Below, piece by piece: positions 1,748-24,932 of a stretch of DNA of 64,000 bases. Position 1 is the stretch's first letter. The number at the start of each line of letters is the position of its first letter. The DNA comes from a virus (Duplodnaviria > Heunggongvirae > Uroviricota > Caudoviricetes): IMG/VR virus record IMGVR_UViG_3300027819_000008, positions 27,405 to 91,404 of that record, one strand, 5' to 3'. Below the pieces are notes generated by a model. It worked only from the letters and a program-made list of their open reading frames with translations, searched no databases and was not told the origin of the DNA. Made by a program: the position numbers and the translations under genes.

Positions 1748-3397
1748 CTATATCTTAGGCAACTCAGTCAGGCCAAACTTCCGGGCCACGTCGTTATATG
1801 AAAACAGGAGTCCCATGTGGGGACCAACCGAGAAGTCCACGCGGTAGGGCACGTCCGCCTCCAGGCGCCAGTCGAACGGCAGCGCCGTGCAGCGGCGGTA
1901 CACGAGCATGGCCGTCGGCTCCAGGTACCCAGGCGCACAGTCACCCCAGCCGGAGTCGTGCACGGTGTTGCTGTGCCAGGAGCGGAACGGCTTACCGCCG
2001 GGGCCGGAGCCCCCGTGCAGCCGCCAGCCCGCGGCCTCCGGAAACAGCAGCCCGCGCGCCTCCCACATCGGCGGCACCGCGAGCTGGACGTACTCCCCGT
2101 GGTGCAGCAGCGCGATCATCCACAGGCAGTCCGTGGCGTTCATGGACTGCGTCGGCGTGTTGGCCGCCTTGTGAAAGTTGTGGGACAGCGGTCCCCAGAG
2201 GCGCTTGTCACCGACCTGGAACTTGGGCTTCCCGTCCACGCGGCCCAGGTACCGCACGCCCTCCGGCAGGCCGACCCACCGGCGGCGGCCGTACCCGTCC
2301 TGGCAGTACCCGAGGCGCCCGAGGTGGTCCTGGTCCCACTCGTAGAGCTCCGCCAGCCCCGTGTAGCCGGCGTCGAACGCGGCGGCGAGGCGCTTGGCCT
2401 CGTCGTCCGGCAGCAGCATCCGCGCCTCGTTCCACAGCGTCCCCTGCAGCGCGCGCCACGAGCCCCCGAAGATCTTAAGGAAGAACGTCTGCTTGCCGAC
2501 GGTGTCGCGCTCGTGCGTCCCCTTCTTGTACGTCCCCTCCGGCACGCCGTAGAGGAGCGAGGCCGTCTTGCTGTGGATGTCCTTCCCCTCGCGCAGGTAC
2601 TCGTACGCGATCGGGTCCGGCCGGGCGCAGTACTTCCACGTCAGCATGGCCGCGCGGATGCACGCCTCGGCGCCGGAGATGTCCCAGCGCCACACGCTGC
2701 CGTGCTTCCGCGGGTCCCACACGGCGGCCAGCACGTCCAGCTGCTCCGCGCCCGTCTTCTTGGCCGCGACCGCGGCCTCCACGTCCGGCGTGAGGTGCAC
2801 GGCCCCCTCCCGGGGCACGATGCAGGACTTGATGCCCTGGGCGACCACCTTGTCCGCGCGCTCCGGGATGTTCTGCACCTGGGGGTCCTCGCACGACAGC
2901 CGGGAGGTGCGGAGCGCCCAGTTGTACTTCGTGTGGATCGCGCCGTCGGGGCGCAGTCGGTCGCGCCACGCGCGCAGCCACTTCGCGCGCCCACCCTGCA
3001 GCGACCGGATCTTCATGACGGCGTACACCACCGGGTGGTCGCCCGCGCGGGGGACCTTGATGGACGCGTAGTGCTGCAGGAACTCATCGGCGGTGGACGG
3101 CGTCTCCCCCGCGGCCAGCCGCTGCCCCGTGGGCTCCAGTCCCAGCCCCTGCGCGGAGTACAGGAACTTGGCCAGCGTGGCGGGGTGAATGGAGTCGGCC
3201 TCGGAGTACTTGAGGGTCATGCCGCGCTTCGCGGCCTCGCCCTCCACCAGGGCCTTGTGCGCGGCGAGCTCGGCCCCCCACGCGCGGTCCACCTCGGCCA
3301 GGCGCCGCTGGTCCAGGAACAGACCGGCCCGGCGCAGCTGGGACACCGCCGCATTCGCGGGCACCAGCACGTTGGCGTAATAGCTCCAGAGCTCCAT
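1748..3397 (-). CDS. polA: DNA polymerase I (family A) polymerase domain; C-terminal piece of a split polA
   Basis: Contains motif A region (RTSRLSCEDPQVQNIPER), motif B (RDTVGKQTFFLKIFGGS) and an AANTPTQSMNATD block like Pol I AINAPMQGTAAD. Start is ATG (MELWSYY) at 3397, one nt after the upstream stop (TAGCATG); the track ORF is over-extended to 3496. The N-terminus aligns with the Pol I segment that immediately follows Exo III. Confidence 0.85.
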   Translation of the reverse strand: MELWSYYANVLVPANAAVSQLRRAGLFLDQRRLAEVDRAWGAELAAHKALVEGEAAKRGMTLKYSEADSIHPATLAKFLYSAQGLGLEPTGQRLAAGETPSTADEFLQHYASIKVPRAGDHPVVYAVMKIRSLQGGRAKWLRAWRDRLRPDGAIHTKYNWALRTSRLSCEDPQVQNIPERADKVVAQGIKSCIVPREGAVHLTPDVEAAVAAKKTGAEQLDVLAAVWDPRKHGSVWRWDISGAEACIRAAMLTWKYCARPDPIAYEYLREGKDIHSKTASLLYGVPEGTYKKGTHERDTVGKQTFFLKIFGGSWRALQGTLWNEARMLLPDDEAKRLAAAFDAGYTGLAELYEWDQDHLGRLGYCQDGYGRRRWVGLPEGVRYLGRVDGKPKFQVGDKRLWGPLSHNFHKAANTPTQSMNATDCLWMIALLHHGEYVQLAVPPMWEARGLLFPEAAGWRLHGGSGPGGKPFRSWHSNTVHDSGWGDCAPGYLEPTAMLVYRRCTALPFDWRLEADVPYRVDFSVGPHMGLLFSYNDVARKFGLTELPKI

Positions 3398-3398
3398 G

Positions 3399-3653
3399 CT
3401 AGAAGAACGCCTGCTGCGCCGCGGCGGGCCGGTAGGTCGCGCCCGCCTCGGTGATCTGTCGCTCCAGCGCGGTGAAGTATTGCACGTTGACCTCATGGCA
3501 CTTGAGCGTGTCGGCCGCCACCTCGTTCAGCGTGTACCCCATCTTCTCCACGTACCGGTGAACAGCCGTCCGCTCCGCGGGCATGTGATCCCGCGCGTAC
3601 AGGTACGAGTAGAGCCGGCGCTTCAGGCCAAGCTCCCACCACCGGGACTCCAC
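3399..3653 (-). CDS. small helix-turn-helix-like protein encoded inside the polA-splitting insert
   Basis: C-terminal 60-80 aa look protein-like (YVEKMGYTLNEVAADTLKCHEVNVQYFTALERQI, HTH-like). Candidate GTG start at 3653 follows GGGGA; an alternative ATG lies at 3584. The upstream part of the track ORF 3399..4013 is W/R-rich frame junk. Confidence 0.3.
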   Translation of the reverse strand: MESRWWELGLKRRLYSYLYARDHMPAERTAVHRYVEKMGYTLNEVAADTLKCHEVNVQYFTALERQITEAGATYRPAAAQQAFF

Positions 3654-3852
3654 TCCCCGAGGCAGGGACCCACACGCGAAGTAGAACCTCACCGGCACCC
3701 CCGGAGAGTCTTGGCCAACCCCAAAACGGGGTGTACAACCCCCAAAACGGGCCCGTACGGGGCGATTGGGGGCTTCCCGGTGTGGTTGCACGGGAACCCC
3801 CCTCCCGACCCGCCCAGGGGGAGCCACGGCCGGGCGTGTCGAAATGGCACGA

Positions 3853-5103
3853 TCACAGGTACTCCGCCCGCCGCAGCCGGGCGTCCAGGGCCACCTCCAG
3901 CTCCAGCGTGGCGCAGGCGTCGTGCACCGCCCCACTAGCCACCTGCTCCAGGGGAAGGTCGCGCATCCGTCCCTTGTCCACCTCGGCCCAATACTGGCGC
4001 TTGCCCAGGACATCCACCACGGCCTTCTCCAGGCGCAGGCTCTCGTGCGTCCCGTCGCTGAGGGAGACGAGCGCGAGCATGGCGTCGCGCGTGCGGCGGA
4101 CGCGGTGTGCCCACCCGGGGACGACCAGCCCCTCCTCGTCGAAGTGCCCGTTGAACGCCGTCCGGTCGGCCGCAGAGGTGAAGGCCGGGGTCAGCAGCTC
4201 GCACACCCGCGCGCGGTGCGCGAGCAGCGGCGCGAGCTCCAGCCACGCCCCCTGCGTGAACGACCACGCGACCGCGACGCCGCGCAGGCGGAAGTCCGGG
4301 TGGCACGGGTCGGTGGAGACCTCCTTGCGGCTCGGGAACGCACCCCCGTCAAAGGACTCTATGTCGAAGGCCCACATCGCGCGGTGGCGAGTCAGGCGCT
4401 CGGCGAGCGCGCCCAGCTGGTCCAGCGTGGTGACCACCGTGACGCGCACCGCGGACTGGGGCTCCTGCCCGTGCAGGCGCTCGGCCATCCGCCGCATGTC
4501 GTCGGTGAACTGCGCCGTGAGTTCCGCGCGCCGCGCGGGGTCCGGCACCTGCTGGAGCGACCCGGGGTGTCGGTCCACGAACGCGTCCCGCCCGTCCGGC
4601 GTCCTGATCCACAGCCCGCGCACGCCGCCGAGTCGCTGCCGGGTGTTCCCTGTGACGTGGTGGAGCGGCGCGAGGCCGAGCACGAGCAGCGGGACCCCCG
4701 GGTCGTAGCGCGCGAGGTCGCGGGCCAGGTGGGCCGCGCAGCGCCGAGCCGACTCCTTCCACGCCTTACCCTCGAAGTCGTCCCCGGCCGGCCGGCACCG
4801 CGCGAGGTGCAGGTACGCGACGCGGTCCGGGTCCACGTTCGCGGCCTGGAGCGCCGGGCGCAGCACCCACTGGTCACCCTGCCCGCCCGGTGCGGTGGTC
4901 AGCACGATCAGCTGCGGGTCCTCACAGTGCACCGGGGGGACCTTGCGGTCCGGGGCGTCACTCGGGCACCCACTGCACGGGTTGCCGAGGTCCGCGGGTG
5001 TACGGGGAGTTTGTGGTGCTCCGGCAGTCCGCTGCCGCCGCTTTGGTGCGCGGGCGAAGGCCGGCCGGTCGAACTGAGAGAAGAAAGACGGCTGCTCCGT
5101 CAA
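3853..5103 (-). CDS. UDG-like domain fused to 3'-5' proofreading exonuclease (N-terminal piece of split PolA)
   Basis: Exo I (AFDIESFDGG), Exo II (FNGHFDEE) and Exo III (HDACATLE) motifs are present. The N-terminal half is Cys-rich and resembles family-4 UDG (as in SPO1 polymerase-associated UDG). TTG start at 5103. Ends with a TGA immediately followed by a hairpin-rich insert. Confidence 0.75.
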   Translation of the reverse strand: MTEQPSFFSQFDRPAFARAPKRRQRTAGAPQTPRTPADLGNPCSGCPSDAPDRKVPPVHCEDPQLIVLTTAPGGQGDQWVLRPALQAANVDPDRVAYLHLARCRPAGDDFEGKAWKESARRCAAHLARDLARYDPGVPLLVLGLAPLHHVTGNTRQRLGGVRGLWIRTPDGRDAFVDRHPGSLQQVPDPARRAELTAQFTDDMRRMAERLHGQEPQSAVRVTVVTTLDQLGALAERLTRHRAMWAFDIESFDGGAFPSRKEVSTDPCHPDFRLRGVAVAWSFTQGAWLELAPLLAHRARVCELLTPAFTSAADRTAFNGHFDEEGLVVPGWAHRVRRTRDAMLALVSLSDGTHESLRLEKAVVDVLGKRQYWAEVDKGRMRDLPLEQVASGAVHDACATLELEVALDARLRRAEYL

Positions 5104-5286: not shown

Positions 5287-5375
5287 TTATATGACACAAG
5301 GACCCTCGCCTGCAGCTTCACTGCAGTGTGTGTGTGCGTTGTCGTTACCGGCCCCGAGATAAATCTTCACGCCAG
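5287..5375 (-). repeat. Q-repeat copy B (27-aa micro-ORF VKIYLGAGNDNAHTHCSEAAGEGPCVI)
   Basis: Its GTG start overlaps the clamp TGA stop (GTGA), the same coupling geometry as real genes in this genome. Paralogous to copies A, D and E and to the dpdA start. Confidence 0.5.
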
Positions 5376-6590
5376 CAGCATCACGATGTGCTCGAACCGC
5401 TTGTCCGCAGACACGAAGTACGCCGTGGTCCCGGCCCCCGCGGCCGGGAGCCAGAACCGACGGCCGACGACCTCGAGCGCCTCCTTGAGGTACTTGCCAT
5501 TGACCGAGAACGTCGTCGGCTCGCCCTGCACCGCGGCCGGGATCTCCTCCTCGGCGCGCGCGTCGGCCTCGGCCACCGTCAGCTTCAGCGAGTCCCGGCC
5601 GACCTCCCCCTGCACCCGGAACGTCGGGGCGGTGGCGAAGTGCAGCAGCCGCTCGAACGCGGCGGCCAGGTCCCCGGTGACGTCCACCCAGGTTCCCCCG
5701 CCGCGGGCGTCCTCCCGGACCTTCTTGAGGGCGCCGGCGAACCCGGCCGTCGGGAACCCCGCGGCCAGGAGCGACCCGTACACCGCCGCGCGCTCCCCGA
5801 GGAAGAACCACACGGTGGCGTCGCCCTCCAGGCACACGGAGGTCGCGTCGCGGCGGCGCGACCCGAGGCGCTCCAGCAGGTGGTCCGGCAGCAGCAGCCC
5901 ACCCTTCGGCGCGGGTGTGCGGTACTCCTTCGGGGGATTCAGCACCGAGATGCGGAACGTGTCGGTGGACAGCAACAGCCCACCCTCCGACCAGTACACG
6001 CCGCGGAGCGGGGGCTTCGTCTCGTCCCGGCACACCGTGAACATCACACGCTCGAGCTCGCCCCACCACCGCGGGTCCAGCGCCGTGCGTGGGGTCTTCG
6101 GCGCCTCCCGCTGCACGTACAGGGACACGTCCTCGGTGCCCGCGGGCCTGTAGCACCCCAGCTGCGCGCGGAACCTCCCGCCCCGGAGACGAATCGTCCC
6201 CTCGTGGGACTCCAGCACCAGCTCCTCCACGGACGAGTCGTTCAGCGACGTCACGATGCGGCGCAGGTGCGCGGCCGAGAGGGCGAACTCCCCGGGGAAG
6301 GTCCACGGCGTGGTGTGCACCGCGCCGGCGGACCCGGAGTTGGACCGGACCGACGTCCCCTGGAACCAGACCTGCTTGAGCCCGGGCACGAGGTCGCGGT
6401 CGGAGGCGAAGTCGCTCGTCAGCGTGATCGCCGGCAGCAGCTCCTCCACCGGGAGCGTGACCCCGGACCCCGGCTTCTTCTTGGCAGCCTTCGGGGCCTC
6501 CGGCCTGTCATCGTCCAGGAAGGACTGGGTGATCTCGGTCACCCCGGTCTCGCTGGTTACCCGCATCTCCGGCGCCCGCTTCTTGGCCAT
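5367..6590 (-). CDS. dnaN: DNA polymerase III beta sliding clamp
   Basis: Aligns with E. coli DnaN: IRLRGGRFRAQL versus RSGRSRFSLSTL, the YWSEGGLLLSTDTFRISV block, and the C-terminus TTAYFVSADKRFEHIVMLLA versus AAYVVMPMRL. ATG at 6590 overlaps the HNH stop (TAATG); the track ORF is over-extended to 6716. Confidence 0.8.
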   Translation of the reverse strand: MAKKRAPEMRVTSETGVTEITQSFLDDDRPEAPKAAKKKPGSGVTLPVEELLPAITLTSDFASDRDLVPGLKQVWFQGTSVRSNSGSAGAVHTTPWTFPGEFALSAAHLRRIVTSLNDSSVEELVLESHEGTIRLRGGRFRAQLGCYRPAGTEDVSLYVQREAPKTPRTALDPRWWGELERVMFTVCRDETKPPLRGVYWSEGGLLLSTDTFRISVLNPPKEYRTPAPKGGLLLPDHLLERLGSRRRDATSVCLEGDATVWFFLGERAAVYGSLLAAGFPTAGFAGALKKVREDARGGGTWVDVTGDLAAAFERLLHFATAPTFRVQGEVGRDSLKLTVAEADARAEEEIPAAVQGEPTTFSVNGKYLKEALEVVGRRFWLPAAGAGTTAYFVSADKRFEHIVMLLA

Positions 6591-7057
6591 TAAACGTGAC
6601 TCCAGGTTTGTCGTCGGCATATGTAAGAAATCATGACTTGAGAAACCCCATACCGTTTCGCAGCGACGCGCTGGCTGATCAGCCCACGCTTTCCTTTGCC
6701 AAGCCCCGGCCCACACACCCGGCGGATCTCTTTCACAACCGCGGCAGTTAGCTTTTTGGCAGCGCGCCCCTTATAAGTCTTGTCCGCCATGTTGGCGGCT
6801 TGAGTACCAAGGAACAGATGCGTCGGCTCGCCGCATGTTCCGGTATCACAGGTGTGGCAGACTTCCAAACCAACGGGGATAACCCCACGCACCAGAGTCC
6901 AGGCTAGCCTATGAACGAGCCAGCAAGTTCTCTGAAAAGTGACCGTGCCGTAAGCACCCCTCTCGTCATTGCACGCACCTTGCCAGAGCAGGCAGCCATT
7001 TGCAGAACGCTTGAACTTAAGCCAGAAGTCTGCCGGCATACTCGCTCGCTGAGGCAT
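6590..7057 (-). CDS. HNH homing endonuclease (free-standing)
   Basis: HNH core: CLLWQG...GYG...LVHRLAW...HTCDTGTCGEPTHLFLGT. The C-terminal tail is HTH-like. Sits between dpdA and dnaN. Confidence 0.8.
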   Translation of the reverse strand: MPQRASMPADFWLKFKRSANGCLLWQGACNDERGAYGTVTFQRTCWLVHRLAWTLVRGVIPVGLEVCHTCDTGTCGEPTHLFLGTQAANMADKTYKGRAAKKLTAAVVKEIRRVCGPGLGKGKRGLISQRVAAKRYGVSQVMISYICRRQTWSHV

Positions 7058-8011
7058 TTAAAAAAAGGACTTCTGCGTTGCCCGGCGCGACCAAGGACGA
7101 TCCACCCAGCTCTTTTCCAGATCGAGAAAAAATAGAACATTAAGCTCGTCGCGCTTCACGTAGTCCGTGGCCAGCTGCTCCGGCGCGTACCCCTTCCCCT
7201 CCACGTACGCAAGGATCGCGGCCTGCTCGGCCGGGGCGTACGTCTTGAAGTGGGCCCCGTCCTCGCTCAGCTTCGGCGAACGGTCGGAGAAGGACACGTT
7301 GTGCACCTTCCCGCCGAGCGGCACGTAGCAGCCGCCGAAGTTGCCGACCTTGACCCACGACGTGCTATCGACCGAGAACCAGGGATACATCTGCATGAGC
7401 GCGATGCTCGTCAGCCCGAACCCGTGGAAGCGGCGGAGGGGCCGGCCCTCATCGTCGGTCAGCAGCTCCATGGAGCGGTCCAGGGACTTGATGCGGTCCG
7501 CGGACGTCAGCCCCGGAGCGGCCAGCCCGCCGAGCGCGAAGTACTCGGCGTGGTCCATGAGCTTCCGGAGCCACTTGAGGTCCTCGCCCCGGTGGTACGT
7601 GTGGATGAGCTGGACGCCGGACCCCCGCAGCTTCTTCTGGAGGTACGCGTAGTTCTCCCACCCGCGCTCCGCGGCGCGCTCCACCTCGGCCGCGGACGCC
7701 GGCTGCCCCGGCTTCCCCGGGATCACGTCCAGGTTGGCGACGACGGTGAACGCGTCCCGGTTCGCGAGGACGAAGTCCGCGTAGTCGTCCAGGTTGATCT
7801 CCGACCCCTTGGCCCAGGCCGTGAACGCCCCGGAGTCCAGGAACAGGTCCACTGCCGGCTTGCCCCCACCGCTCATGAACACCTCCGCCCACGGCAGCCG
7901 CGCCGGGGTCTCGCGCACGATCGCGTACGAGTGCAGGCGGCGCCGCGCCCCGACGCGGGCCACGTTGGCCTCGCGCGTGCGCTCCAGGCTCCCGGCCAGG
8001 TACACCCTCAT
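7058..8011 (-). CDS. dpdA: DpdA-like DNA 7-deazaguanine transglycosylase (TGT superfamily)
   Basis: LFLDSGAFTAW matches the TGT catalytic TDSGGFQ motif. No zinc-site cysteines, which is typical of DpdA. Co-located with the preQ0 biosynthesis genes. The start MRVYLAGS is duplicated in the Q repeats. Confidence 0.6.
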   Translation of the reverse strand: MRVYLAGSLERTREANVARVGARRRLHSYAIVRETPARLPWAEVFMSGGGKPAVDLFLDSGAFTAWAKGSEINLDDYADFVLANRDAFTVVANLDVIPGKPGQPASAAEVERAAERGWENYAYLQKKLRGSGVQLIHTYHRGEDLKWLRKLMDHAEYFALGGLAAPGLTSADRIKSLDRSMELLTDDEGRPLRRFHGFGLTSIALMQMYPWFSVDSTSWVKVGNFGGCYVPLGGKVHNVSFSDRSPKLSEDGAHFKTYAPAEQAAILAYVEGKGYAPEQLATDYVKRDELNVLFFLDLEKSWVDRPWSRRATQKSFF

Positions 8012-8192: not shown

Positions 8193-8295
8193 TCACCGTT
8201 CCCGTACGAAAAGAGCACCCGCCCCCCCCTTGGCGACCACGGACTTCGTGTGGGCCACGTCGTTCTTGCCGGCGCCGAGATACACCTTCACCGGC
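8193..8295 (-). repeat. Q-repeat copy E (32-aa micro-ORF VKVYLGAGKNDVAHTKSVVAKGGAGALFVRER)
   Basis: Its GTG overlaps the folE TGA stop (GTGA). Protein-level and nucleotide-level similarity to copies A and B. Confidence 0.5.
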
Positions 8296-9193
8296 GGATC
8301 AGCGCGAGGAACTCCGCGCGGGTCTCCGGGTGATCGCGGAAGACGCCGCGCATGGCCGACGTGACCATGGTGCTCTCCGGCTGCCGCACCCCGCGCATGA
8401 CCATGCAAAAGTGCGTGGCCTCCACCACGACGGCCACCCCGCGCGGCTCCAGGGCCTGCTCGAGCTCCAGGGCCACCTGCTGCGTCAGGCGCTCCTGCAC
8501 CTGCAGCCGGCGCGCGTACTTTTCCACCACGCGGGACAGCTTGGACACCCCGATGATCTTGGTGGACGGCAGGTACCCCACGTGGGCGCGCCCGAAGAAC
8601 GGCAGCATGTGGTGCTCGCAGTGGCTGACGAACTGGATGTCCCGCGAGATCACGACCTCGTCGGTCAGCCCGTCCTCGAACGTAGTGAGCGCCGGGGTCA
8701 TCGCGTACCCCCCGAACAGCTCCTTCCACGCCCGGGCCACGCGGGCCGGCGTCTCGCGCAGGCCCTCGCGCTTCGGGTCCTCCCCGAGGAACTCGAGCAT
8801 GCGCGTGATGATCTCGCTGCCGGGTTCCTCCTGCTTCTCGTAGGGGTACACGACCCAGTCGCCGGTCTCCTCCACCAGGTAGGTCGGCACCGACCGCGAG
8901 GCCGGGCGGACGTGGAGCACCGCCGTCAGGTGGTCGGGGTAGCGCGCGAGCGTCTCCCCGCTGTCGCAGATGTCGTCCACCACCAGGCACCCGGGCTCCG
9001 GGGTCTCCAGCAGGACCGGCTCGCGACCGCACTGCTGGGCCAGGGCCCGCGCGAGCAGCATGGCGACCGGGACCCCGCCGCTCGGGACCGGGTAGAGCGC
9101 GTCGAAGCGCGCCCCACGCGCGCAGATTGCGCTGGCCAGCTCCTGGGCCAGCAGGTCCAGCTCCGTCCAGGTGACCCGCCGCTGCACCCGCAT
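8288..9193 (-). CDS. folE: phosphoribosyltransferase-like domain fused to GTP cyclohydrolase I (FolE)
   Basis: The C-terminal ~185 aa carry the FolE signature (FVSHCEHHMLPFFGRAHVGYLPSTKIIGVSKLSRVVE...ATHFCMVMRG). The N-terminal ~116 aa look like a type I PRTase (VPSGGVPVAMLLARAL...LVVDDICDSGETL...WVVYPYE). ATG at 9193 overlaps the queE stop (ATGA); the track N-terminus is out-of-frame overlap. Confidence 0.75.
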   Translation of the reverse strand: MRVQRRVTWTELDLLAQELASAICARGARFDALYPVPSGGVPVAMLLARALAQQCGREPVLLETPEPGCLVVDDICDSGETLARYPDHLTAVLHVRPASRSVPTYLVEETGDWVVYPYEKQEEPGSEIITRMLEFLGEDPKREGLRETPARVARAWKELFGGYAMTPALTTFEDGLTDEVVISRDIQFVSHCEHHMLPFFGRAHVGYLPSTKIIGVSKLSRVVEKYARRLQVQERLTQQVALELEQALEPRGVAVVVEATHFCMVMRGVRQPESTMVTSAMRGVFRDHPETRAEFLALIRR

Positions 9194-9969
9194 CAGGCCA
9201 CGCCCAGCATCTTGTGCGTCTGCAGCGACAGCCGCCACTCCGGGTGATCCATCAGGGCCCGGAGGCAGAGCTCGGTGGCGCGCCGGGAGCAGGACATGGG
9301 CTGGACCGTCAGGGAGATCGGCCGGCGCGCGTCGCGCGGGCGCAGGTCCTGGGTCAGGCGCAGGTGCTCGGCGTGCCGGGACAGGAACACCTCGTAGGCC
9401 ACCACGTCGCGCTCGCTGCCGACGATCCACTTGACCTCGTTGGCCTCCGCGAGCACGTGCGGGTGGATCTGCAGGCGCCCGGCCGGCTTCGGCGAGACGC
9501 ACACCCAGTCCCACACGCCGGAGATGGGGTACACCCCGGAGGTCTCCAGCGCGGTCTTGATCCCGTGCCGGTGCAGCGCCGAGGTCAGCGCCCCGCAGTC
9601 GTGCCACAGGGGCTCGCCGCCGGTGACCAGCGCCCAGCGCGGCGGGTGGCCGTTGACGACGTCCCCCACCTGAGACGCGCTGAGGTCGGGCGCCGGAATC
9701 GGCCTACCCTCGTCCCCACCCGACAGCGAGGAGAAATTCTGGTCCCAGCTCTCCGGCGTGTCGCAGAAGATGCACCCGACCGGGCAGCCCTGGAGGCGCA
9801 CGATGGTCATCGGTGTGCCGCAGAGCGAGCCTTCCCCCTGCACGGTGGGGTAAATGCGATTGATCCTGTACCGCGTATAGTCGCGGCGGTTGAGCGGCCA
9901 GTCCGCACCGGAGGGGGCGACCGCGCCGTACTGTGCGGGTGTGAGGACCCGGTCCGCCGCGGGGATCAC
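9193..9969 (-). CDS. queE: 7-carboxy-7-deazaguanine synthase QueE (radical SAM)
   Basis: CPVGCIFC matches the Cys-x3-Cys-x2-Cys radical-SAM motif. LVTGGEPL and LSLQTHKMLG blocks are typical of QueE. Confidence 0.85.
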   Translation of the reverse strand: MIPAADRVLTPAQYGAVAPSGADWPLNRRDYTRYRINRIYPTVQGEGSLCGTPMTIVRLQGCPVGCIFCDTPESWDQNFSSLSGGDEGRPIPAPDLSASQVGDVVNGHPPRWALVTGGEPLWHDCGALTSALHRHGIKTALETSGVYPISGVWDWVCVSPKPAGRLQIHPHVLAEANEVKWIVGSERDVVAYEVFLSRHAEHLRLTQDLRPRDARRPISLTVQPMSCSRRATELCLRALMDHPEWRLSLQTHKMLGVA

Positions 9970-12215: not shown

Positions 12216-13499
12216 TCAGGCCGGCTTGACGTACTTGCTGGCGATCATCGTGTTGCGACCCTTGAACCGGCAGCCGTAGCGCACGCCGGGCCCGACGTTG
12301 CCGTAGTACCGGAACACCTTGCCCTTGTCCCCCTTGCGCAGCCACTCCGCGCGGCTGCCACCCAGGTACACGACCTCGGTCCCCTTCGGGATGAGCTTCT
12401 CGCCGGCGCGCGGGACGTACTTCCCGCTGTCGATGCGCTCGAACGCCGTCTTGGCCGCCCACTCCTTGCTGCCGCTGCGCTCGGCGGCCGGCTTCTTGGT
12501 GACCTTCGCCGTCTTGGCCGCGTCGGCCTTGGCCTTCTTCGCGGCCTTAGCGGCCTGCTTCTCCGCCTTGGCCTTCTTGTCGGCGTCCGCCTTGGCCTTC
12601 TTATCGGCCTTCACCTTCTCCGCCTTCGCGGCCTTGTCGGCCTTCACCTTCTCCGCCTTCGCGGCCTTGTCGGCCTTGGCCTTGGCCTCGTCGGTCTTGA
12701 CCTTCGTGCTGTCCGCGCCGTTCGCGTCGGCCGCTTCCGCCGCCATGCCCGGCTCCATCGGGAACATCTGGTCCACCGCTCCCATTCGCTCCATCGTCGT
12801 CTCTCCTTTGTTCGGGGTCAACTGCCTCTTATCCACTATATCGAGCGGAGCACCATGAGGGTCGTCACGGTCGAGCGCGGCGCGCACCTGCCCCTCCACG
12901 CGCGACCACGCCAGCCGCAGCCGGGAAATGGGGACCTCGAGCACCTGTGCGAGCACGTGCTCACGCACCGACGCGAACGTTTGCTTGCCGCGCCCGCGAT
13001 GGGTCCACTGCCGGCGGAGCTCCGCGAGGGTTCCCGCCGCGGGTTCCAGGAGCTCGTGCAGCAGCCGGCGCTCCACCTCGGGGAGCAGGCGCTCGGCCTC
13101 CTGCAGTGCGAACTGGACCATCATGGTCCGCAGGCCGTCCTCCCCCACGGTCTCAGCCATGGCCCGGGCGCCGTCACCCAGGGGTTCGTCCAGGCTGAGC
13201 ACGCGCACGCCCCCACCCCCGAACGCGCGGCTGCGCGTGTAGGCCGTGATGCACGCGCGCGAGACCGTGGCCGTCCCCATCCGGCCCAGGTCCTCCGCCG
13301 GCACGCGGTGCCGGTGGCGCCGCCAGTTGCGCCAGAGGTTAAGCAGGCCGTCCTGGATCAGGTCCTCCTGGGACAGGTACGGGTGGTGCGACCCCCGCGC
13401 GCTGGACCCCGTGACGCGCTTGACCCACGGCTTCATCTTGACCAGGTACTGCTCGAACGCGACCTCCTCGTCCCGCGTCGGTGCGAGCTGCGCGCTCAA
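12216..13499 (-). CDS. sigma-70-family-like protein with C-terminal Lys/Ala-rich histone-H1-like repeats and a small C-terminal domain
   Basis: Region-2-like segment (YLSQEDLIQDGLLNLWRNW). Followed by KAKADKAAKAEKVKADKAAKAEK... repeats, then about 85 aa with a globular-looking composition. TTG start at 13499 overlaps the upstream TGA (TTGA). Confidence 0.45.
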   Translation of the reverse strand: MSAQLAPTRDEEVAFEQYLVKMKPWVKRVTGSSARGSHHPYLSQEDLIQDGLLNLWRNWRRHRHRVPAEDLGRMGTATVSRACITAYTRSRAFGGGGVRVLSLDEPLGDGARAMAETVGEDGLRTMMVQFALQEAERLLPEVERRLLHELLEPAAGTLAELRRQWTHRGRGKQTFASVREHVLAQVLEVPISRLRLAWSRVEGQVRAALDRDDPHGAPLDIVDKRQLTPNKGETTMERMGAVDQMFPMEPGMAAEAADANGADSTKVKTDEAKAKADKAAKAEKVKADKAAKAEKVKADKKAKADADKKAKAEKQAAKAAKKAKADAAKTAKVTKKPAAERSGSKEWAAKTAFERIDSGKYVPRAGEKLIPKGTEVVYLGGSRAEWLRKGDKGKVFRYYGNVGPGVRYGCRFKGRNTMIASKYVKPA

Positions 13500-14248
13500 A
13501 GCTGGGCTCCCCCCTTGCCGGTGGCCAGCCCGCGCTTGGTCTTCTTGTCCTCGCTGGGCTTCTGGCTCCCGGCCGTTCGGCACTTCCCGCATCGCCACGC
13601 CTTGGACTTGGTGGGCACGGACGCCTCGTGCCCGCACTCCAGCTCACACCACTTGGATTTACCGCGATCCGTGATGACGCGCTTAACGCTTCGCAGCGGA
13701 CCGTACTTCTTGACCAGCGCGTCGTTGCGATCAGCCAGAGCCTTGGAATCTTTTGGTACCGGCGCGCGCGTGCGCTTGGGAACCGGGACTGAATCCGGCT
13801 CCGGGGCCTGCGGCTTGCTGACGGCCACGCGCCCCGACCCGAGGCACGCCGGACACTTCTCGCCGGGCGACTGCTCGCCGAGCCCGGCGCACTTGGTGCA
13901 CTCCGCGTCCACCGGCACCTGCACCGGCCTGTTCAGCCCAAGCATCTTGTCGATCATGGACTGGGGGCGCCACCCCTCGCGCTGTCCCAGCGCCAGGGCC
14001 GCGCACTCGGGGGAGCAGTAGTTCTGCGTCGTCCGGCCGGACAGGACGAGCTCGGGCACGAACGTGCGCGTGCACGCCGGGACCCCGAAGACCTCGCGCG
14101 CCCGCAGGCAGGACCGGCGCCGCAGCTGGTCCAGCGCGGCCTTCGCCTTGGCCACCCCCTTCTCGTCGCCCACCTTCGTGGACTCCTTCAGCTGTGTCTT
14201 GGCCTGCTTGACGACTTCGCGCTTCACCCGCGCCGCAATCTTGGCCAC
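13496..14248 (-). CDS. zinc-ribbon / DnaJ-type CxxCxGxG zinc-finger protein
   Basis: CTKCAGLGEQSPGEKCPACLGSG and CELECGH...CGKC motifs. Lys-rich N-terminus. Translationally coupled to the sigma-like gene. Confidence 0.4.
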   Translation of the reverse strand: MAKIAARVKREVVKQAKTQLKESTKVGDEKGVAKAKAALDQLRRRSCLRAREVFGVPACTRTFVPELVLSGRTTQNYCSPECAALALGQREGWRPQSMIDKMLGLNRPVQVPVDAECTKCAGLGEQSPGEKCPACLGSGRVAVSKPQAPEPDSVPVPKRTRAPVPKDSKALADRNDALVKKYGPLRSVKRVITDRGKSKWCELECGHEASVPTKSKAWRCGKCRTAGSQKPSEDKKTKRGLATGKGGAQL

Positions 14249-23220: not shown

Positions 23221-24504
23221 CTATCCCTTCACGCAGAGGACACCCTTGAGCACGTGCACCACGTCCACCAGGTCGGCCTGCGCGGCCATGACCGCGTCTA
23301 TGTCCTTGTAAGCTGCCGGCGTCTCGTCCAGCACCCCGGCATCCTTGCGGCACTCCACGCCGGCCGTCGCGGCCTCGTGGTCGGCCACCGTGAACTCCCG
23401 CTTGGCCCGGCCACGCGACATGCGGCGCCCGGCCCCGTGGCTGCACGACTGGAACGACTCGGGGTTCCCCCTGCCGCGCACGATGTACGACCGCGCGCCC
23501 ATGCTGCCGGGGATGATGCCGAGGTCGCCGAGGCCGGCGCGGACCGCGCCCTTGCGGGTCACCAGCACCCGCTCGCCGAAGTGGACCTCCTCGGCGACGT
23601 AATTGTGATGGCAGTTAACGACGACCTCGCACGCCCCGAGCCCCGACGCCCAGTAGGGCGCGCTGCCGCTGGGCGCGAAGGCGAACGTGTGCTTCTGGAC
23701 CGCGGCGAGGACGGCGCGCAGCATGACCTCCCGGTTGGTCGCGGCGTATCGCTGTGCCCACCCCACCGCCTCGACGTAGTCGTCGTACAGCGGCGTGCCC
23801 CGCGACAGCCACGACAGGTTCGGGTCGTGGCCCTGCGGGAGGCCGGCCGCGGCCTGTGGGAGCGTGGCGAACGCCATCTCCAGCGGGTGCGTCGCGACGT
23901 ACTCCTTGGCCTTGTCGATGAAGTACTGCCCGATGCCGTTGCCGACCCCGCGGCTGCCGCTGTGGAGCATGACCCACACGCGCTGCTCCTCGTCCAGGCA
24001 CACCTCGACGAAGTGGTTGCCCCCGCCGAGCGTCCCGAGCTGACAGAGTGGCGTCTGGCGCCGGCTCCTGACCGCCAGCGGGTGCTTCTGGTGAATCGCC
24101 GCGTAGCCGGCGGCTAGCGGATTCACACCGCCCGCCCACTCCCCGAACGGCGCGCGATCCTCCCGGTGGGCGCCGAACCCGACCGGCACGCCCCACTCTA
24201 TGTCCGCGCGCATGGTCTTCAGGCTCTCCGGCAGGTCGGACGCGGTCAGCGGCGTGCGCGCGGCAACCATGCCGCACCCGATGTCCACCCCGACCGCGGC
24301 CGGCACGATTGCCCCCACGGTCGCGACCACCGACCCGATCGTTGCGCCCATGCCCCAGTGCACGTCCGGCATCACCGCGAGGTGGCGAAAGATGAACGGC
24401 AGGGCCGCCGTGTTCCGCAACTGGTTCAGCGCCTCGTGCTCGACCTCGACGCCGTCGGTCCACATCTTGATCGGCGCGCGCCCCTTTTCCACGATCTCCC
24501 TCAT
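23221..24504 (-). CDS. rtcB: RtcB RNA 3'-phosphate/2',3'-cyclic phosphate-5'-OH ligase
   Basis: MPDVHWGMGATIGSV, GCGM, GGGNHFVEV, HSGSRGVG, NCHHNY, GSMG and SCSHGAGR motifs. ATG at 24504 overlaps the upstream TGA. Confidence 0.9.
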   Translation of the reverse strand: MREIVEKGRAPIKMWTDGVEVEHEALNQLRNTAALPFIFRHLAVMPDVHWGMGATIGSVVATVGAIVPAAVGVDIGCGMVAARTPLTASDLPESLKTMRADIEWGVPVGFGAHREDRAPFGEWAGGVNPLAAGYAAIHQKHPLAVRSRRQTPLCQLGTLGGGNHFVEVCLDEEQRVWVMLHSGSRGVGNGIGQYFIDKAKEYVATHPLEMAFATLPQAAAGLPQGHDPNLSWLSRGTPLYDDYVEAVGWAQRYAATNREVMLRAVLAAVQKHTFAFAPSGSAPYWASGLGACEVVVNCHHNYVAEEVHFGERVLVTRKGAVRAGLGDLGIIPGSMGARSYIVRGRGNPESFQSCSHGAGRRMSRGRAKREFTVADHEAATAGVECRKDAGVLDETPAAYKDIDAVMAAQADLVDVVHVLKGVLCVKG

Positions 24505-24932
24505 TCCGGGACTCCGCGTAGCATCCGCTCCACGAGCGAGCGCGCCCTGAGGATGTTGGCCGAGTCGTTCCACAGGCGGCTGCGGCCGGACGGGTGCGGC
24601 AGCATCACCGCCTGAAAGTCCGGGTCCACGCTCACGACCGCGAACGGTTGAAACGACTTGGGTAAGAATGCGTCGGCCACCTTGGCCCCGAGGAGGATCA
24701 GCGGCCGCGGGGTCCGGCGCAGGATCTTGGACGCAGCCTCACGCGCCTGGCGCGTCGACCACGCGCCGAGGCAGAGGTTCACCCGGTCGAACGCGCGCAG
24801 GTACTCGCGCTGCCCCATGTCGAGGATCAGGTGGCAGAGCCGGTGGCCGGCGCAGCCGGGCGGGTCGGGCCACAGCGCGTACTGTGGGTCCGGCCCATAG
24901 GGATTGACCTCGCCGACGAGGAGCGGCCTCAC
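24501..24932 (-). CDS. UDG-superfamily-like protein
   Basis: VGEVNPYG (GExPG-like motif A) and LPHPSGRSRLWN (HPS-like motif B). GTG start overlaps the stop of the 56-aa gene. Confidence 0.4.
   Translation of the reverse strand: MRPLLVGEVNPYGPDPQYALWPDPPGCAGHRLCHLILDMGQREYLRAFDRVNLCLGAWSTRQAREAASKILRRTPRPLILLGAKVADAFLPKSFQPFAVVSVDPDFQAVMLPHPSGRSRLWNDSANILRARSLVERMLRGVPE

Follow-up and report, generated by a model that had tools for sequence, protein, structure and literature searches.

The window analyzed here is a 64,000-nt stretch of phage DNA, and all coordinates are positions within it. A family A DNA polymerase is encoded here by two ORFs, and the exonuclease (exo), slot, and polymerase (pol) features are all on the minus strand. 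The features of the locus are as follows.

77-1138: gp32-like gene
1748..3397, minus strand: pol ORF, replicase subunit 2, ATG at 3397, 549 aa; family A polymerase domain only (thumb, palm, and fingers), with the N terminus MELWSYYANVLVP
3398-3852, minus strand: gap between exo and pol (slot), 455 bp
3399..3692, minus strand: 97-aa ORF, GTG at 3692 to TAG at 3401-3399, its stop lying 1 nt before the pol ATG
3581..3583, minus strand: deletion junction ATG/CCC, from blastn against L058 and L056
3693..3852, minus strand: noncoding spacer, 160 nt, from the exo stop to the small ORF, including a GC-rich hairpin
3719-3731 and 3740-3752: tandem mini-hairpins CCCCGTTTTGGGG and GCCCGTTTTGGGG, in the spacer
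3752-3761: palindrome CCCGTACGGG, in the spacer
3853..5103, minus strand: exo ORF, replicase subunit 1, TTG start at 5103, 416 aa
roughly 3856-4461, minus strand: DEDD 3'-5' exonuclease domain, residues ~215-416 of the exo ORF
roughly 4489-4986, minus strand: family 4 UDG-like Fe-S domain, residues ~40-205 of the exo ORF
5367..6716, minus strand: sliding-clamp-like gene adjoining the exo gene on its upstream side, with weak DNA_pol3_beta_2/_3 matches
7058..8011, minus strand: resident dpdA-like gene of the TGT/DpdA family, 317 aa, paralog of the deleted slot passenger

The order of clamp, UDG-exo, slot, pol, 188-aa ORF, and gp32-like SSB is common to the relatives and is the context of a replication operon. 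In L002 and L020, too, an ORF homologous to the clamp-like gene precedes exo.

When the exo and pol proteins were artificially concatenated and compared with Klenow using HMMER, a single alignment ran through the junction with indels of at most 3 residues. The two proteins also shared the profile phrog_17, exo residues 201-411 matching profile positions 628-829 and pol residues 10-538 matching 839-1240. Thus, as an earlier note on this DNA had claimed, the two ORFs are the halves of a Pol I-type enzyme, cut at the boundary between Exo III and the polymerase domain. Because the cut falls exactly at this boundary and nothing was lost, both genes go back to one ancestral gene of the Pol I type. 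The outgroup is fused, the nearest cultured-phage PolAs being single exo-pol genes of 756 and 785 aa; the best cultured-phage matches were PolAs of Rhizobium and Vibrio siphophages (22 to 25% identity), not T7-like ones.

The pol ORF matched PF00476 (69 bits versus a cutoff of 34.3), phrog_17 (E = 1e-33), and Taq/Klenow, with partial NCBIfam matches of the Pol I and DpdZ types. GC3 and the N termini of relatives both favored the ATG at 3397 as its start, rather than the ATG at 3496 farther upstream. The invariant residues were D239 of motif A, K302, F306, and G311 of motif B, and H480 and D481 of motif C. In motif C, HDS stands in place of HDE, so the kinetics of the enzyme may be unusual.

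The exo ORF, which ends in ...RLRRAEYL-TGA, retains the invariant carboxylates of Exo I (D247 and E249), Exo II (D322), and Exo III (D395). Most relatives, like the window, have glycine in place of the Exo III tyrosine, which only L015 and L039 retain. The N-terminal UDG-like domain reported by the earlier note proved to be real: the Pfam match (PF03167) was weak, and a profile built from 16 orthologs matched family 4 UDGs of the PDB at E = 1e-23. The AF2 model of this subunit reached a pLDDT of 88.4, and Foldseek related it to UdgX/family 4 UDG folds and to the exonuclease folds of Klenow, phage G20c Pol I, and Rrp6. Cys43, Cys46, Cys103, and Cys122 are conserved. In the window, 11 residues are missing after the "APG" motif and motif B reads HPG, which makes glycosylase activity of this domain doubtful. 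GC3 of the two halves was 0.91 to 0.95. Judging from the invariant catalytic residues and motifs, GC3, and the exo model, both halves look functional. The joint model of the two halves reached a pLDDT of only 36.

The relatives of this locus, all of them metagenomic, share the split. All of the approximately 97 pol homologs (44 to 71% identity) begin at the polymerase domain with the same N-terminal boundary, and the extra length of three long ones comes solely from an intein-like insert. Likewise, the exo homologs were all at most 476 aa (49/49). Where both genes were present, each had its own ORF, both on one strand, with exo directly preceding pol (28/28 loci). A fused exo-pol was found among none of the ~97 pol homologs, 49 exo homologs, and 28 loci. 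The new termini are conserved as well (...RL.RGEYL in exo and M..xDYYxxVLVPANVAV in pol).

Six of the 28 loci carried no insert; there the gap measured -44 to +2 nt, in differing reading frames, and the stop codon of exo overlapped the start codon of pol. In the neighbor-joining tree of the polymerase, the deepest branch (L039, L014, and L015) consisted entirely of such empty-slot loci, with overlaps of the ATGA or GTGA type. The empty slot is likely the ancestral state, although this is not proven, since the tree was a quick one, rooted at the midpoint and lacking support values. Because the split occurs in every detectable relative, even in insert-free loci, it is an old gene fission and a trait of the whole uncultured clade of roughly 100-kb phages rather than an interruption by the insert of the window. 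The earlier description of a gene cleanly interrupted by this insert thus does not hold, since the split is also seen in loci whose exo and pol overlap and leave no DNA between them.

The exo/pol boundary has become a hypervariable slot in which passenger genes were gained, swapped, and lost. Gaps ranged from -44 to about +1,200 nt with all frame relations, and the stop codons of the cargo mostly overlapped the pol start by 1 to 4 nt. The passengers are genes for nucleotide-pool and DNA-modification enzymes. The cargo found in the relatives was as follows.

ThyX plus DUF3310
Dcd-like
dGTP_diPhyd_N (dATP/dGTP diphosphohydrolase-like)
MT-A70 methyltransferase
N6_N4 DNA methylase
PLP-dependent enzyme
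HNH endonuclease, in L029 only
full-length second dpdA-like paralog

In the window, the insert does contain the CCCCGTTTTGGGG-type hairpins, the CCCGTACGGG palindrome, and the small ORF listed by the earlier note. Its description as structured was not borne out: the RNA fold was no better than chance (z = -0.06 versus dinucleotide shuffles), and the mini-hairpin motif was not enriched and was absent from the rest of the window. The spacer held no sigma-70 promoter or intrinsic terminator consensus. It is 100% identical in L058, a haplotype with an undeleted passenger; similarity was found neither elsewhere in the window nor in the relatives.

The 97-aa ORF has a GC1/2/3 of 0.66/0.43/0.92, and public gene calls give the identical 97 aa. 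It had been taken for an HTH ORF. However, it had no match in Pfam, NCBIfam, or PHROG, and by BLASTP against the DpdA-like protein of the window its residues 1-35 aligned with 1-34 (E = 1e-4) and its residues 34-97 with 256-317 (E = 3e-10). The small ORF is therefore a fragment of the TGT/DpdA family and a deletion remnant, namely codons 1-37 of a dpdA-like passenger joined in frame to its last 60 codons. Down to 3582 the window matches L058 at 100% identity, and from 3582 onward it matches L056, also at 100%; the base common to both matches is a 1-nt G microhomology. In this undeleted haplotype, which co-occurs with that of the window and is spread over two contigs of one sample with a few mid-paralog codons between the contig ends, the flanks are 100% identical to the window and the slot holds a full-length dpdA-like gene of ~300 aa. 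The passenger of the window lineage was thus a second dpdA-like gene, of the 7-deazaguanine DNA transglycosylase family, and a recent in-frame deletion of roughly 0.6 to 0.7 kb took out its catalytic core. The 160-nt spacer upstream of that gene and the 97-aa ORF were left. The haplotype with the deletion was also recovered from other samples and by other assemblers (520/520 nt over 3381-3900).

In nrdA/mobE of Aeromonas phage Aeh1 and in the split gp43 of T4-like phages, an intervening endonuclease caused the split. The present locus resembles these systems in having an essential enzyme of replication or nucleotide metabolism in putatively reassembling pieces with foreign DNA between them. 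Unlike in those systems, no endonuclease is encoded in the window insert, and the split exists even in relatives that lack an insert, so the homing-endonuclease analogy of the earlier note does not extend to the window; an HNH gene sits in the slot of L029 alone.

Exo/pol fission as a phenomenon is already known. As reported in 2023, the S-SBP1-like PolAs of T7-like cyanophages consist of adjacent exo and pol genes that arose by fission at the boundary, with no splicing, and the halves are predicted to reassociate (Czernecki et al. 2023, NAR; PMC10201439). The empty-slot members of our clade have the same overlapping stop/start layout. However, the PolA of the window belongs to a different, far more divergent lineage; all of a large clade carries the split, which is not a recent event confined to a subset, its exo subunit carries a UDG-like domain, and its boundary is a multigene cargo slot that can reach about 1.2 kb. 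UDG-PolA fusions are known from N4-like (cluster 17), SPO1-like, and SP15-like polymerases (PMC10201439; bioRxiv 10.1101/2025.03.26.645540, which lists PDB 9QHS). The clade shares with them the order of N-terminal family 4 UDG-like domain, 3'-5' exo, and pol, and its UDG profile matches the UDG domain of the solved 1,142-aa polymerase 9qhs (E = 1e-8). Its UDG catalytic motifs look degraded, as in the N4-like enzymes (PMC10201439). Those fusions are single polypeptides of 800 to 1,300 aa, whereas the clade has separate UDG-exo and pol proteins and some members have no UDG part. In an OM43 phage, PolA is also encoded by two genes, with a small orphan ORF between them (PMC10580990). Unlike in that unrelated marine podophage lineage, the small ORF of the window could be recognized as what a deletion left of a dpdA paralog, and its slot was shown to be hypervariable.

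We consider it highly probable that this replicative family A polymerase is naturally two polypeptides produced by an old fission and that the insert in its slot is the remnant of a deleted passenger. "Functional genes-in-pieces," one of the options raised earlier, is the right general reading. By analogy with the S-SBP1 model, the UDG-exo and pol proteins would reassociate noncovalently into a proofreading holoenzyme. Translation of pol would be coupled to termination of the preceding ORF, which may be why the surviving deletion is in frame. RNA or protein splicing would play no part.

Group I introns are found in phage polymerase genes elsewhere, such as in SPO1, and the spacer has GC-rich hairpins and palindromes. 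A self-splicing group I or II intron, possibly degenerate, whose removal would restore a fused exo-pol was another earlier proposal, and the OM43-phage authors considered an intron for their split DNAP (PMC10580990). However, an Rfam search of the insert gave no family, intron models included, even at E ≤ 10 with permissive filters. In addition, only 160 nt are noncoding, the rest being a coding remnant, the fold energy equals that of shuffles, insert-free relatives are split in differing frames, and the sister haplotype has a full-length gene at the same position. An intron is therefore extremely improbable. Rejoining at the protein level, by a split intein ("fractured gene") or by ribosomal frameshifting or bypassing, deserves just as little credence. 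Inteins do occur in the clade, and fractured genes with split inteins and an intervening endonuclease are described from metagenomes (PMC2677866), but the Klenow alignment of the concatenated termini shows no extra residues and thus no room for intein halves, and a junction of -44 to +1,200 nt in all frame relations is incompatible with a conserved recoding signal. Nor is there any realistic chance that an error of sequencing or assembly produced the split, or that the phage is defective and the gene a pseudogene. The sequence is metagenome derived and the assembly of one sample breaks inside the slot; nevertheless, at least three assemblies made independently (NCBI GCA_900218215.1, Logan ERR2108714, and the window contig) contain the identical sequence, the split is kept across about 100 homologs, and the coding signature is strong in both ORFs, whose catalytic residues are conserved.

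Two further explanations are unlikely but carry more weight. A homing-endonuclease insertion might have made the original split, with the endonuclease later lost or replaced by cargo. The first gene in the L029 slot is an HNH endonuclease (phrog_3106, E = 4e-12), an HNH_3 gene lies 1.5 kb upstream in the window (6590-7057), and inteins are present in the pol genes of relatives and in a helicase of the window phage, so selfish elements do target the replication module; fast cargo turnover at one site also suggests repeated targeted recombination. However, the insert of the window encodes no endonuclease, 27 of the 28 slots have none, the overlapping ORFs of the deepest relatives leave no space for a former insertion, and the overlap pattern resembles the frameshift-type fission of S-SBP1 (PMC10201439). 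Alternatively, the products might act separately, pol as a nonproofreading polymerase and UDG-exo as an independent repair or nuclease factor. The exo proteins of L008, L030, L033, L036, and L043 have no UDG domain at all, which indicates modular evolution, and most members have lost the Exo III tyrosine. This is a similarly poor prospect, since adjacency, order, and co-orientation are strict in 28/28 loci despite cargo turnover, the new termini of both proteins are conserved, a family A pol domain as a rule depends on the exo domain for its stability, and superposition of the split S-SBP1 pair on unsplit PolA has been predicted (PMC10201439).

With regard to phage DpdA and 7-deazaguanine modification systems, the resident 317-aa gene and the slot paralog both belong to the phage TGT/DpdA family (phrog_887). 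The resident protein matched the phrog_887 profile "queuine tRNA-ribosyltransferase" at E = 1.3e-47, with no match in Pfam or PDB sequence searches. Unlike in those systems, each genome has two dpdA paralogs, of which one sits between the two parts of the polymerase, and in the window the slot copy has been cut to a coreless 97-aa remnant. Orthologs of the resident gene are present in L020 and L052. A FolE gene is also present in the window, and QueC in one relative.

The two halves of the polymerase and the gap between them all lie on the minus strand:

5103 to 3853, minus strand: exonuclease ORF (exo), TTG start, 416 aa, C terminus ...RLRRAEYL followed by TGA
3852 to 3398, minus strand: 455-bp gap between exo and pol
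3397 (ATG) to 1748, minus strand: polymerase ORF (pol), 549 aa, opening MELWSYYANVLVP...

A pol start at the upstream ATG 3496, taken from a mechanical ORF list, was rejected; GC3 there is high only in the frame of a small ORF in the gap, and the starts of the relatives all match the equivalent of 3397. When exo and pol were concatenated, HMMER aligned them to Klenow in a single stretch over the junction, with an indel of ≤3 residues. The PHROG profile phrog_17 was matched collinearly, with positions 628-829 covered by the exo half and then 839-1240 by the pol half. The earlier note was thus correct in its core observation of split Pol I halves, and the sum of both ORFs was shown to be a complete UDG-exo-pol enzyme. 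This is the arrangement of an exo/pol gene fission, in which adjacent co-oriented genes together span an unsplit PolA and the outgroup homologs are unsplit.

The split was common to the whole clade. A large protein database yielded 97 pol homologs (44-71% identity), essentially all of them 506-599 aa long with end-to-end query coverage. Three longer ones (862-926 aa) also begin at the polymerase domain, their surplus being an intein-like insertion. All 49 exo homologs are ≤476 aa, and no fused exo-pol form was detected among these 97 pol and 49 exo homologs. The comparison covered 49 loci from viral and metagenomic collections and those of the two closest relatives. In all 28 non-identical two-gene loci, exo is a separate ORF that directly precedes pol on the same strand; neither these loci nor the window encode exo and pol as one polypeptide of the Klenow type. 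In six loci there is no intervening DNA at all, and in 6/6 the exo and pol reading frames differ.

Junctions of the six relatives' loci with an empty slot between exo and pol
L009, L015: ATGA/GTGA-type 4-nt overlap
L014, L021: 14-nt overlap
L039: overlapping ORFs
L020: TAA-tc-GTG

In a quick neighbor-joining polymerase tree, midpoint-rooted and without support values, the deepest branch (L039, L014, and L015) consisted entirely of empty-slot loci. The earlier note had the gene cleanly interrupted by the insert, which does not fit a split that is present in six loci without intervening DNA. Its proposed comparison with polA of related phages was run, and fused exo+pol genes appeared only in distant cultured-phage PolAs, the nearest being 756 and 785 aa with 22-25% identity. 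Among known phages, megablast returned nothing and tblastn ≤25% identity. The best reading is therefore an old gene fission at a domain boundary, inherited clade-wide. The window is clearly phage DNA, with a gp32-like SSB, clamp-like protein, DnaB-like and UvrD-like helicases, RtcB, FolE, and a Mu-F-like head protein. A prophage origin was rejected, since no relative was found in 185,579 species-representative bacterial and archaeal genomes.

Other origins of the split fared less well. The earlier note had considered a self-splicing intron and an Rfam search for group I elements; a cmscan run over 3200-4100 (both strands, E≤10) matched no group I or group II intron model, its only matches being three lncRNA/sRNA families at chance level. 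The 160-nt spacer at the exo side of the gap (3693-3852) folds no better than shuffled sequence (z = -0.06), so neither an intron nor the "structured" insert of that note is borne out. A split-intein "fractured gene" was rejected because the new termini align to Klenow without extra residues, and a recoding reading was also rejected. An ancestral homing endonuclease, as in split nrdA, could in principle have left the gene in pieces, and one relative (L029) does carry an HNH endonuclease between exo and pol. However, L029 is the only such case, and the sole ORF in the window gap is a DpdA-family remnant without an endonuclease match; this origin is not favored over an old fission at the domain boundary.

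The small ORF (3692 to 3399, minus strand) has the codon-position GC pattern of its flanking genes (0.66/0.43/0.92), and public gene callers predict exactly its 97-aa product. A search of 1.8 billion representative proteins found one real relative, the C terminus of a 266-aa protein. This protein and the window ORF 7058-8011, the resident dpdA-like gene, both belong to the phage TGT/DpdA family (phrog_887, E 1e-47 for the window ORF and 2.5e-39 for the 266-aa protein). Residues 1-35 of the 97-aa product match residues 1-34 of the resident DpdA-like protein (BLASTP E 1e-4) and residues 34-97 match its residues 256-317 (E 3e-10), with no BLASTP match between these two ends. The TIM-barrel catalytic core of DpdA is absent from the 97-aa ORF and present in an undeleted haplotype. 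The mini-hairpins (3719-3731 and 3740-3752), palindrome (3752-3761), and small ORF described earlier were all found, but the ORF is not the HTH protein then proposed: an HTH or sigma-region-4 identity was rejected with no match in Pfam, NCBIfam, or PHROG, and BLASTP identifies a DpdA-family remnant.

The undeleted haplotype came from two contigs of ENA sample ERZ27253369, an independent assembly of the same phage. Contig k141_264133 (L058) is 100% identical to the window over the exo gene, the 160-nt spacer, and the first 37 codons, after which it continues as a normal DpdA-like ORF (...ELLLDSGAFSAWTKG...) up to the contig end. Contig k141_935812 (L056) opens within a DpdA-like ORF (...RMHGFGL...YPWYSCDSTSW...) and, from position 3582 onward, matches the window at 100% identity through the pol gene. 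The window therefore carries an in-frame internal deletion of roughly 200-230 codons in a dpdA paralog residing in the slot. The two ends of the deletion meet at 3582 over a 1-nt microhomology. NCBI GCA_900218215.1 and Logan ERR2108714 also contain the deleted haplotype, at 520/520 nt; this recurrence in independent assemblies rules out the assembly artefact named earlier as a possible refutation.

A fresh local duplicate of the resident dpdA was rejected as the source. DNA likeness is limited to 39 nt at 77%, and the slot paralog is 36-44% identical to the resident copy at the protein level, so the slot copy is an old paralog. The 160-nt spacer is the native upstream region of this paralog. 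It resembles nothing else in the window or in the relatives, and it shows no consensus for a sigma-70 promoter or an intrinsic terminator. Apart from the local pair, the window has no copy of the hairpin motif CCCCGTTTTGGGG, and the motif is not enriched. A regulatory repeat was rejected on these same grounds. A module of about 35 aa (M-R-V-Y-L-A-G ... R-R-L-x-S-Y) was observed at several positions:

7907-8011, minus strand: N terminus (residues 1-35) of the resident DpdA-like protein
3588-3692, minus strand: N terminus of the slot paralog in the window
L052:5840-5995: C terminus of the slot paralog of relative L052 (IRIYLAGG...)
L042:409-591: stand-alone 60-aa ORF in the slot of relative L042

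Non-empty slots hold 178-1200 bp of co-oriented genes that vary between relatives, while the exo/pol gene order is strictly kept as everything between turns over.

Cargo of the slot between exo and pol in relatives' loci
L001/L002/L005: ThyX + DUF3310
L003: dCTP-deaminase-like
L007, L012, L026, L029, L030, L032, and others (a monophyletic group): dATP/dGTP diphosphohydrolase N-terminal domain proteins
L023/L046/L047: PLP-dependent enzyme
L028: MT-A70 methyltransferase
L054 (71% relative): N6_N4 DNA methylase
L029: HNH endonuclease
L052 (68% relative): full-length 317-aa dpdA-like gene
Various loci: several orphan ORFs

The L054 gap looks empty in public gene calls, yet it encodes the methylase. 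In a few high-GC loci, the slot ORFs were read manually, as greedy ORF tiling mis-picks there. At either end, cargo ORFs usually share 1-4 nt with the exo stop and with the pol start, which suggests a translationally coupled chain from exo through cargo to pol. In the window, where the junction reads TAG-C-ATG, pol translation would likewise be coupled to the end of the preceding ORF. Since pol would depend on that termination, coupling may have favored the survival of an in-frame over a frameshifting deletion.

The exo ORF has two domains, with a family-4 UDG-like N-terminal half and a DEDD exonuclease C-terminal half. The carboxylates of Exo I (D247/E249), Exo II (D322), and Exo III (D395) do not vary in alignments of 16 and of 32 sequences. 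The tyrosine of a DEDDy-type Exo III motif (YxxxD) is replaced in the window by G391 (GAVHD, exo residues about 389-395, 3919-3936). Most relatives also have Gly at this position, and Tyr occurs only in L015 and L039 (YAVRD); this replacement is a caveat on activity. An AF2 model of the exo protein, built with database homologs, reached a pLDDT of 88.4. Foldseek placed it in the RNase H-like exonuclease fold, matching Klenow (1kfd and 8oo6), G20c Pol I (7r0k), and Rrp6 over about 205-270 alignment columns at probability 1.0.

The UDG domain was weak in a single-sequence Pfam search, but the UDG-like N terminus reported earlier was confirmed. An ortholog profile against PDB matched family-4 UDGs and UdgX at E values of 1e-23 to 1e-13, and separate Foldseek matches to UDG structures (TM[target] 0.6-0.7) showed the UDG alpha/beta fold. 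The Fe-S cysteines C43, C46, C103, and C122 are conserved. In family-4 UDGs and UdgX, catalytic motif A is GE[AG]PG... and motif B is HP[SA]. The relatives have G-[LMD]-APG..EE..PF.G and HPA, whereas the window has HPG and, judged against all aligned relatives, is missing 11 residues right after the APG of motif A (residues 72-78, about 4870-4890). This loss is a further caveat on activity and is reminiscent of the inactive UDG domains in N4-like PolAs. The exo proteins of five relatives (L008, L030, L033, L036, and L043) are only about 210-290 aa and have no UDG-like domain, and no UDG-like match was found elsewhere in these loci at E<1e-5. Part of the clade thus either does without the UDG module or encodes it separately.

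The pol ORF is a DNA_pol_A protein (PF00476, 69 bits against a gathering cutoff of 34.3, E 4.7e-19), with matches to phrog_17 at E 1e-33 and to Taq and Klenow at E values of about 1e-10. In 28 sequences, motif A D239 (DISGAE), motif B K302/F306/G311, and motif C H480-D481 are invariant. Catalytic residues were thus shown by alignment to be kept in both halves. Motif C (residues 479-482) reads V-H-D-S clade-wide instead of the usual HDE, with S482 also invariant in the 28 sequences, which is a caveat on polymerase activity. The intein-like insertion of the three long pol proteins (P0036, P0040, and P0059) spans about 330-390 aa ahead of the NTPTQS motif, begins C-V-D-A-E-T, and ends ...VFVTGN just before T; the exo domain is still absent from these proteins.

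By analogy, the exo and pol products would assemble noncovalently into a proofreading replicase. The halves of the split PolA of S-SBP1, a T7-like cyanophage, are predicted to superpose on the unsplit homolog (Czernecki et al., PMC10201439). A single-sequence AF2 model of the exo-pol concatenation had a pLDDT of 36.

Exo/pol fission in PolA was described as a first in 2023 for S-SBP1-like T7-like cyanophages (PMC10201439), and a cyanophage lineage has also been said to have "split DNA polymerases". N4-like, SPO1-like, and SP15-like phages are known to have UDG-PolA fusions, and cryo-EM structures exist for the SP15-like enzymes. In the window clade, which is separate from these groups, much larger, and older, the features occur together. 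The S-SBP1-like fission was reported for a subset of T7-like cyanophages; in the window clade the split is fixed, and the proofreading subunit carries a UDG-like domain. Our analysis adds that the fission boundary doubles as a cargo slot, where nucleotide-pool and DNA-modification genes are enriched, and that a passenger-gene deletion is caught as two coexisting haplotypes.

A gene-fission boundary can thus become a hotspot of passenger-gene turnover, seen in progress here, where haplotypes with a full-length and with a core-deleted dpdA paralog have identical flanks. The clade is large and deeply diverged and consists of uncultured phages of roughly 100 kb. It offers about 100 Pol I polymerase domains that naturally stand alone, along with matching exonuclease subunits, a resource for enzyme engineering and for studying how PolA domains stabilize each other. 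When split polymerases of this kind are annotated, labels such as pseudogene, frameshift, or intron-containing gene should be avoided.

A bolder reading, which we regard as quite improbable, is that the boundary would act as a dedicated, translationally coupled "expression socket" for plugging in and swapping DNA-modification and nucleotide-pool enzymes (DpdA paralog, methyltransferases, ThyX, Dcd, and dNTP diphosphohydrolase), with the 97-aa remnant as a retained adaptor or competitor. If so, these enzymes would be made in step with the replicase and might dock on it physically, for example, as a replisome-tethered DpdA inserting 7-deazaguanine co-replicatively. The core-less remnant, which keeps both terminal modules, would then not be junk.

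Several other genes in the window were noted. An HNH_3-type homing-endonuclease-like ORF (6590-7057, minus strand, 155 aa, PF13392 E 1.6e-8) sits between the resident dpdA-like and clamp-like genes, which adjoin without it in L020. A helicase (28392-31103, minus strand, 903 aa, ResIII/DEAD/Helicase_C) has Intein_splicing and HINT matches at residues about 256-354, and the gene probably contains an intein. The FolE (GTP cyclohydrolase I) domain occupies residues 266-438 of ORF 8288-9607 (minus strand), and the roughly 260 residues ahead of it give a weak phosphoribosyltransferase match; this may be an unusual FolE fusion in the 7-deazaguanine module. A 473-aa ORF (12216-13637, minus strand) with a weak sigma-70 region-2 match may be a phage sigma factor, which would bear on why the spacer lacks host-type promoters. 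The RtcB RNA ligase is full-length (23221-24573, minus strand, E 2e-117).
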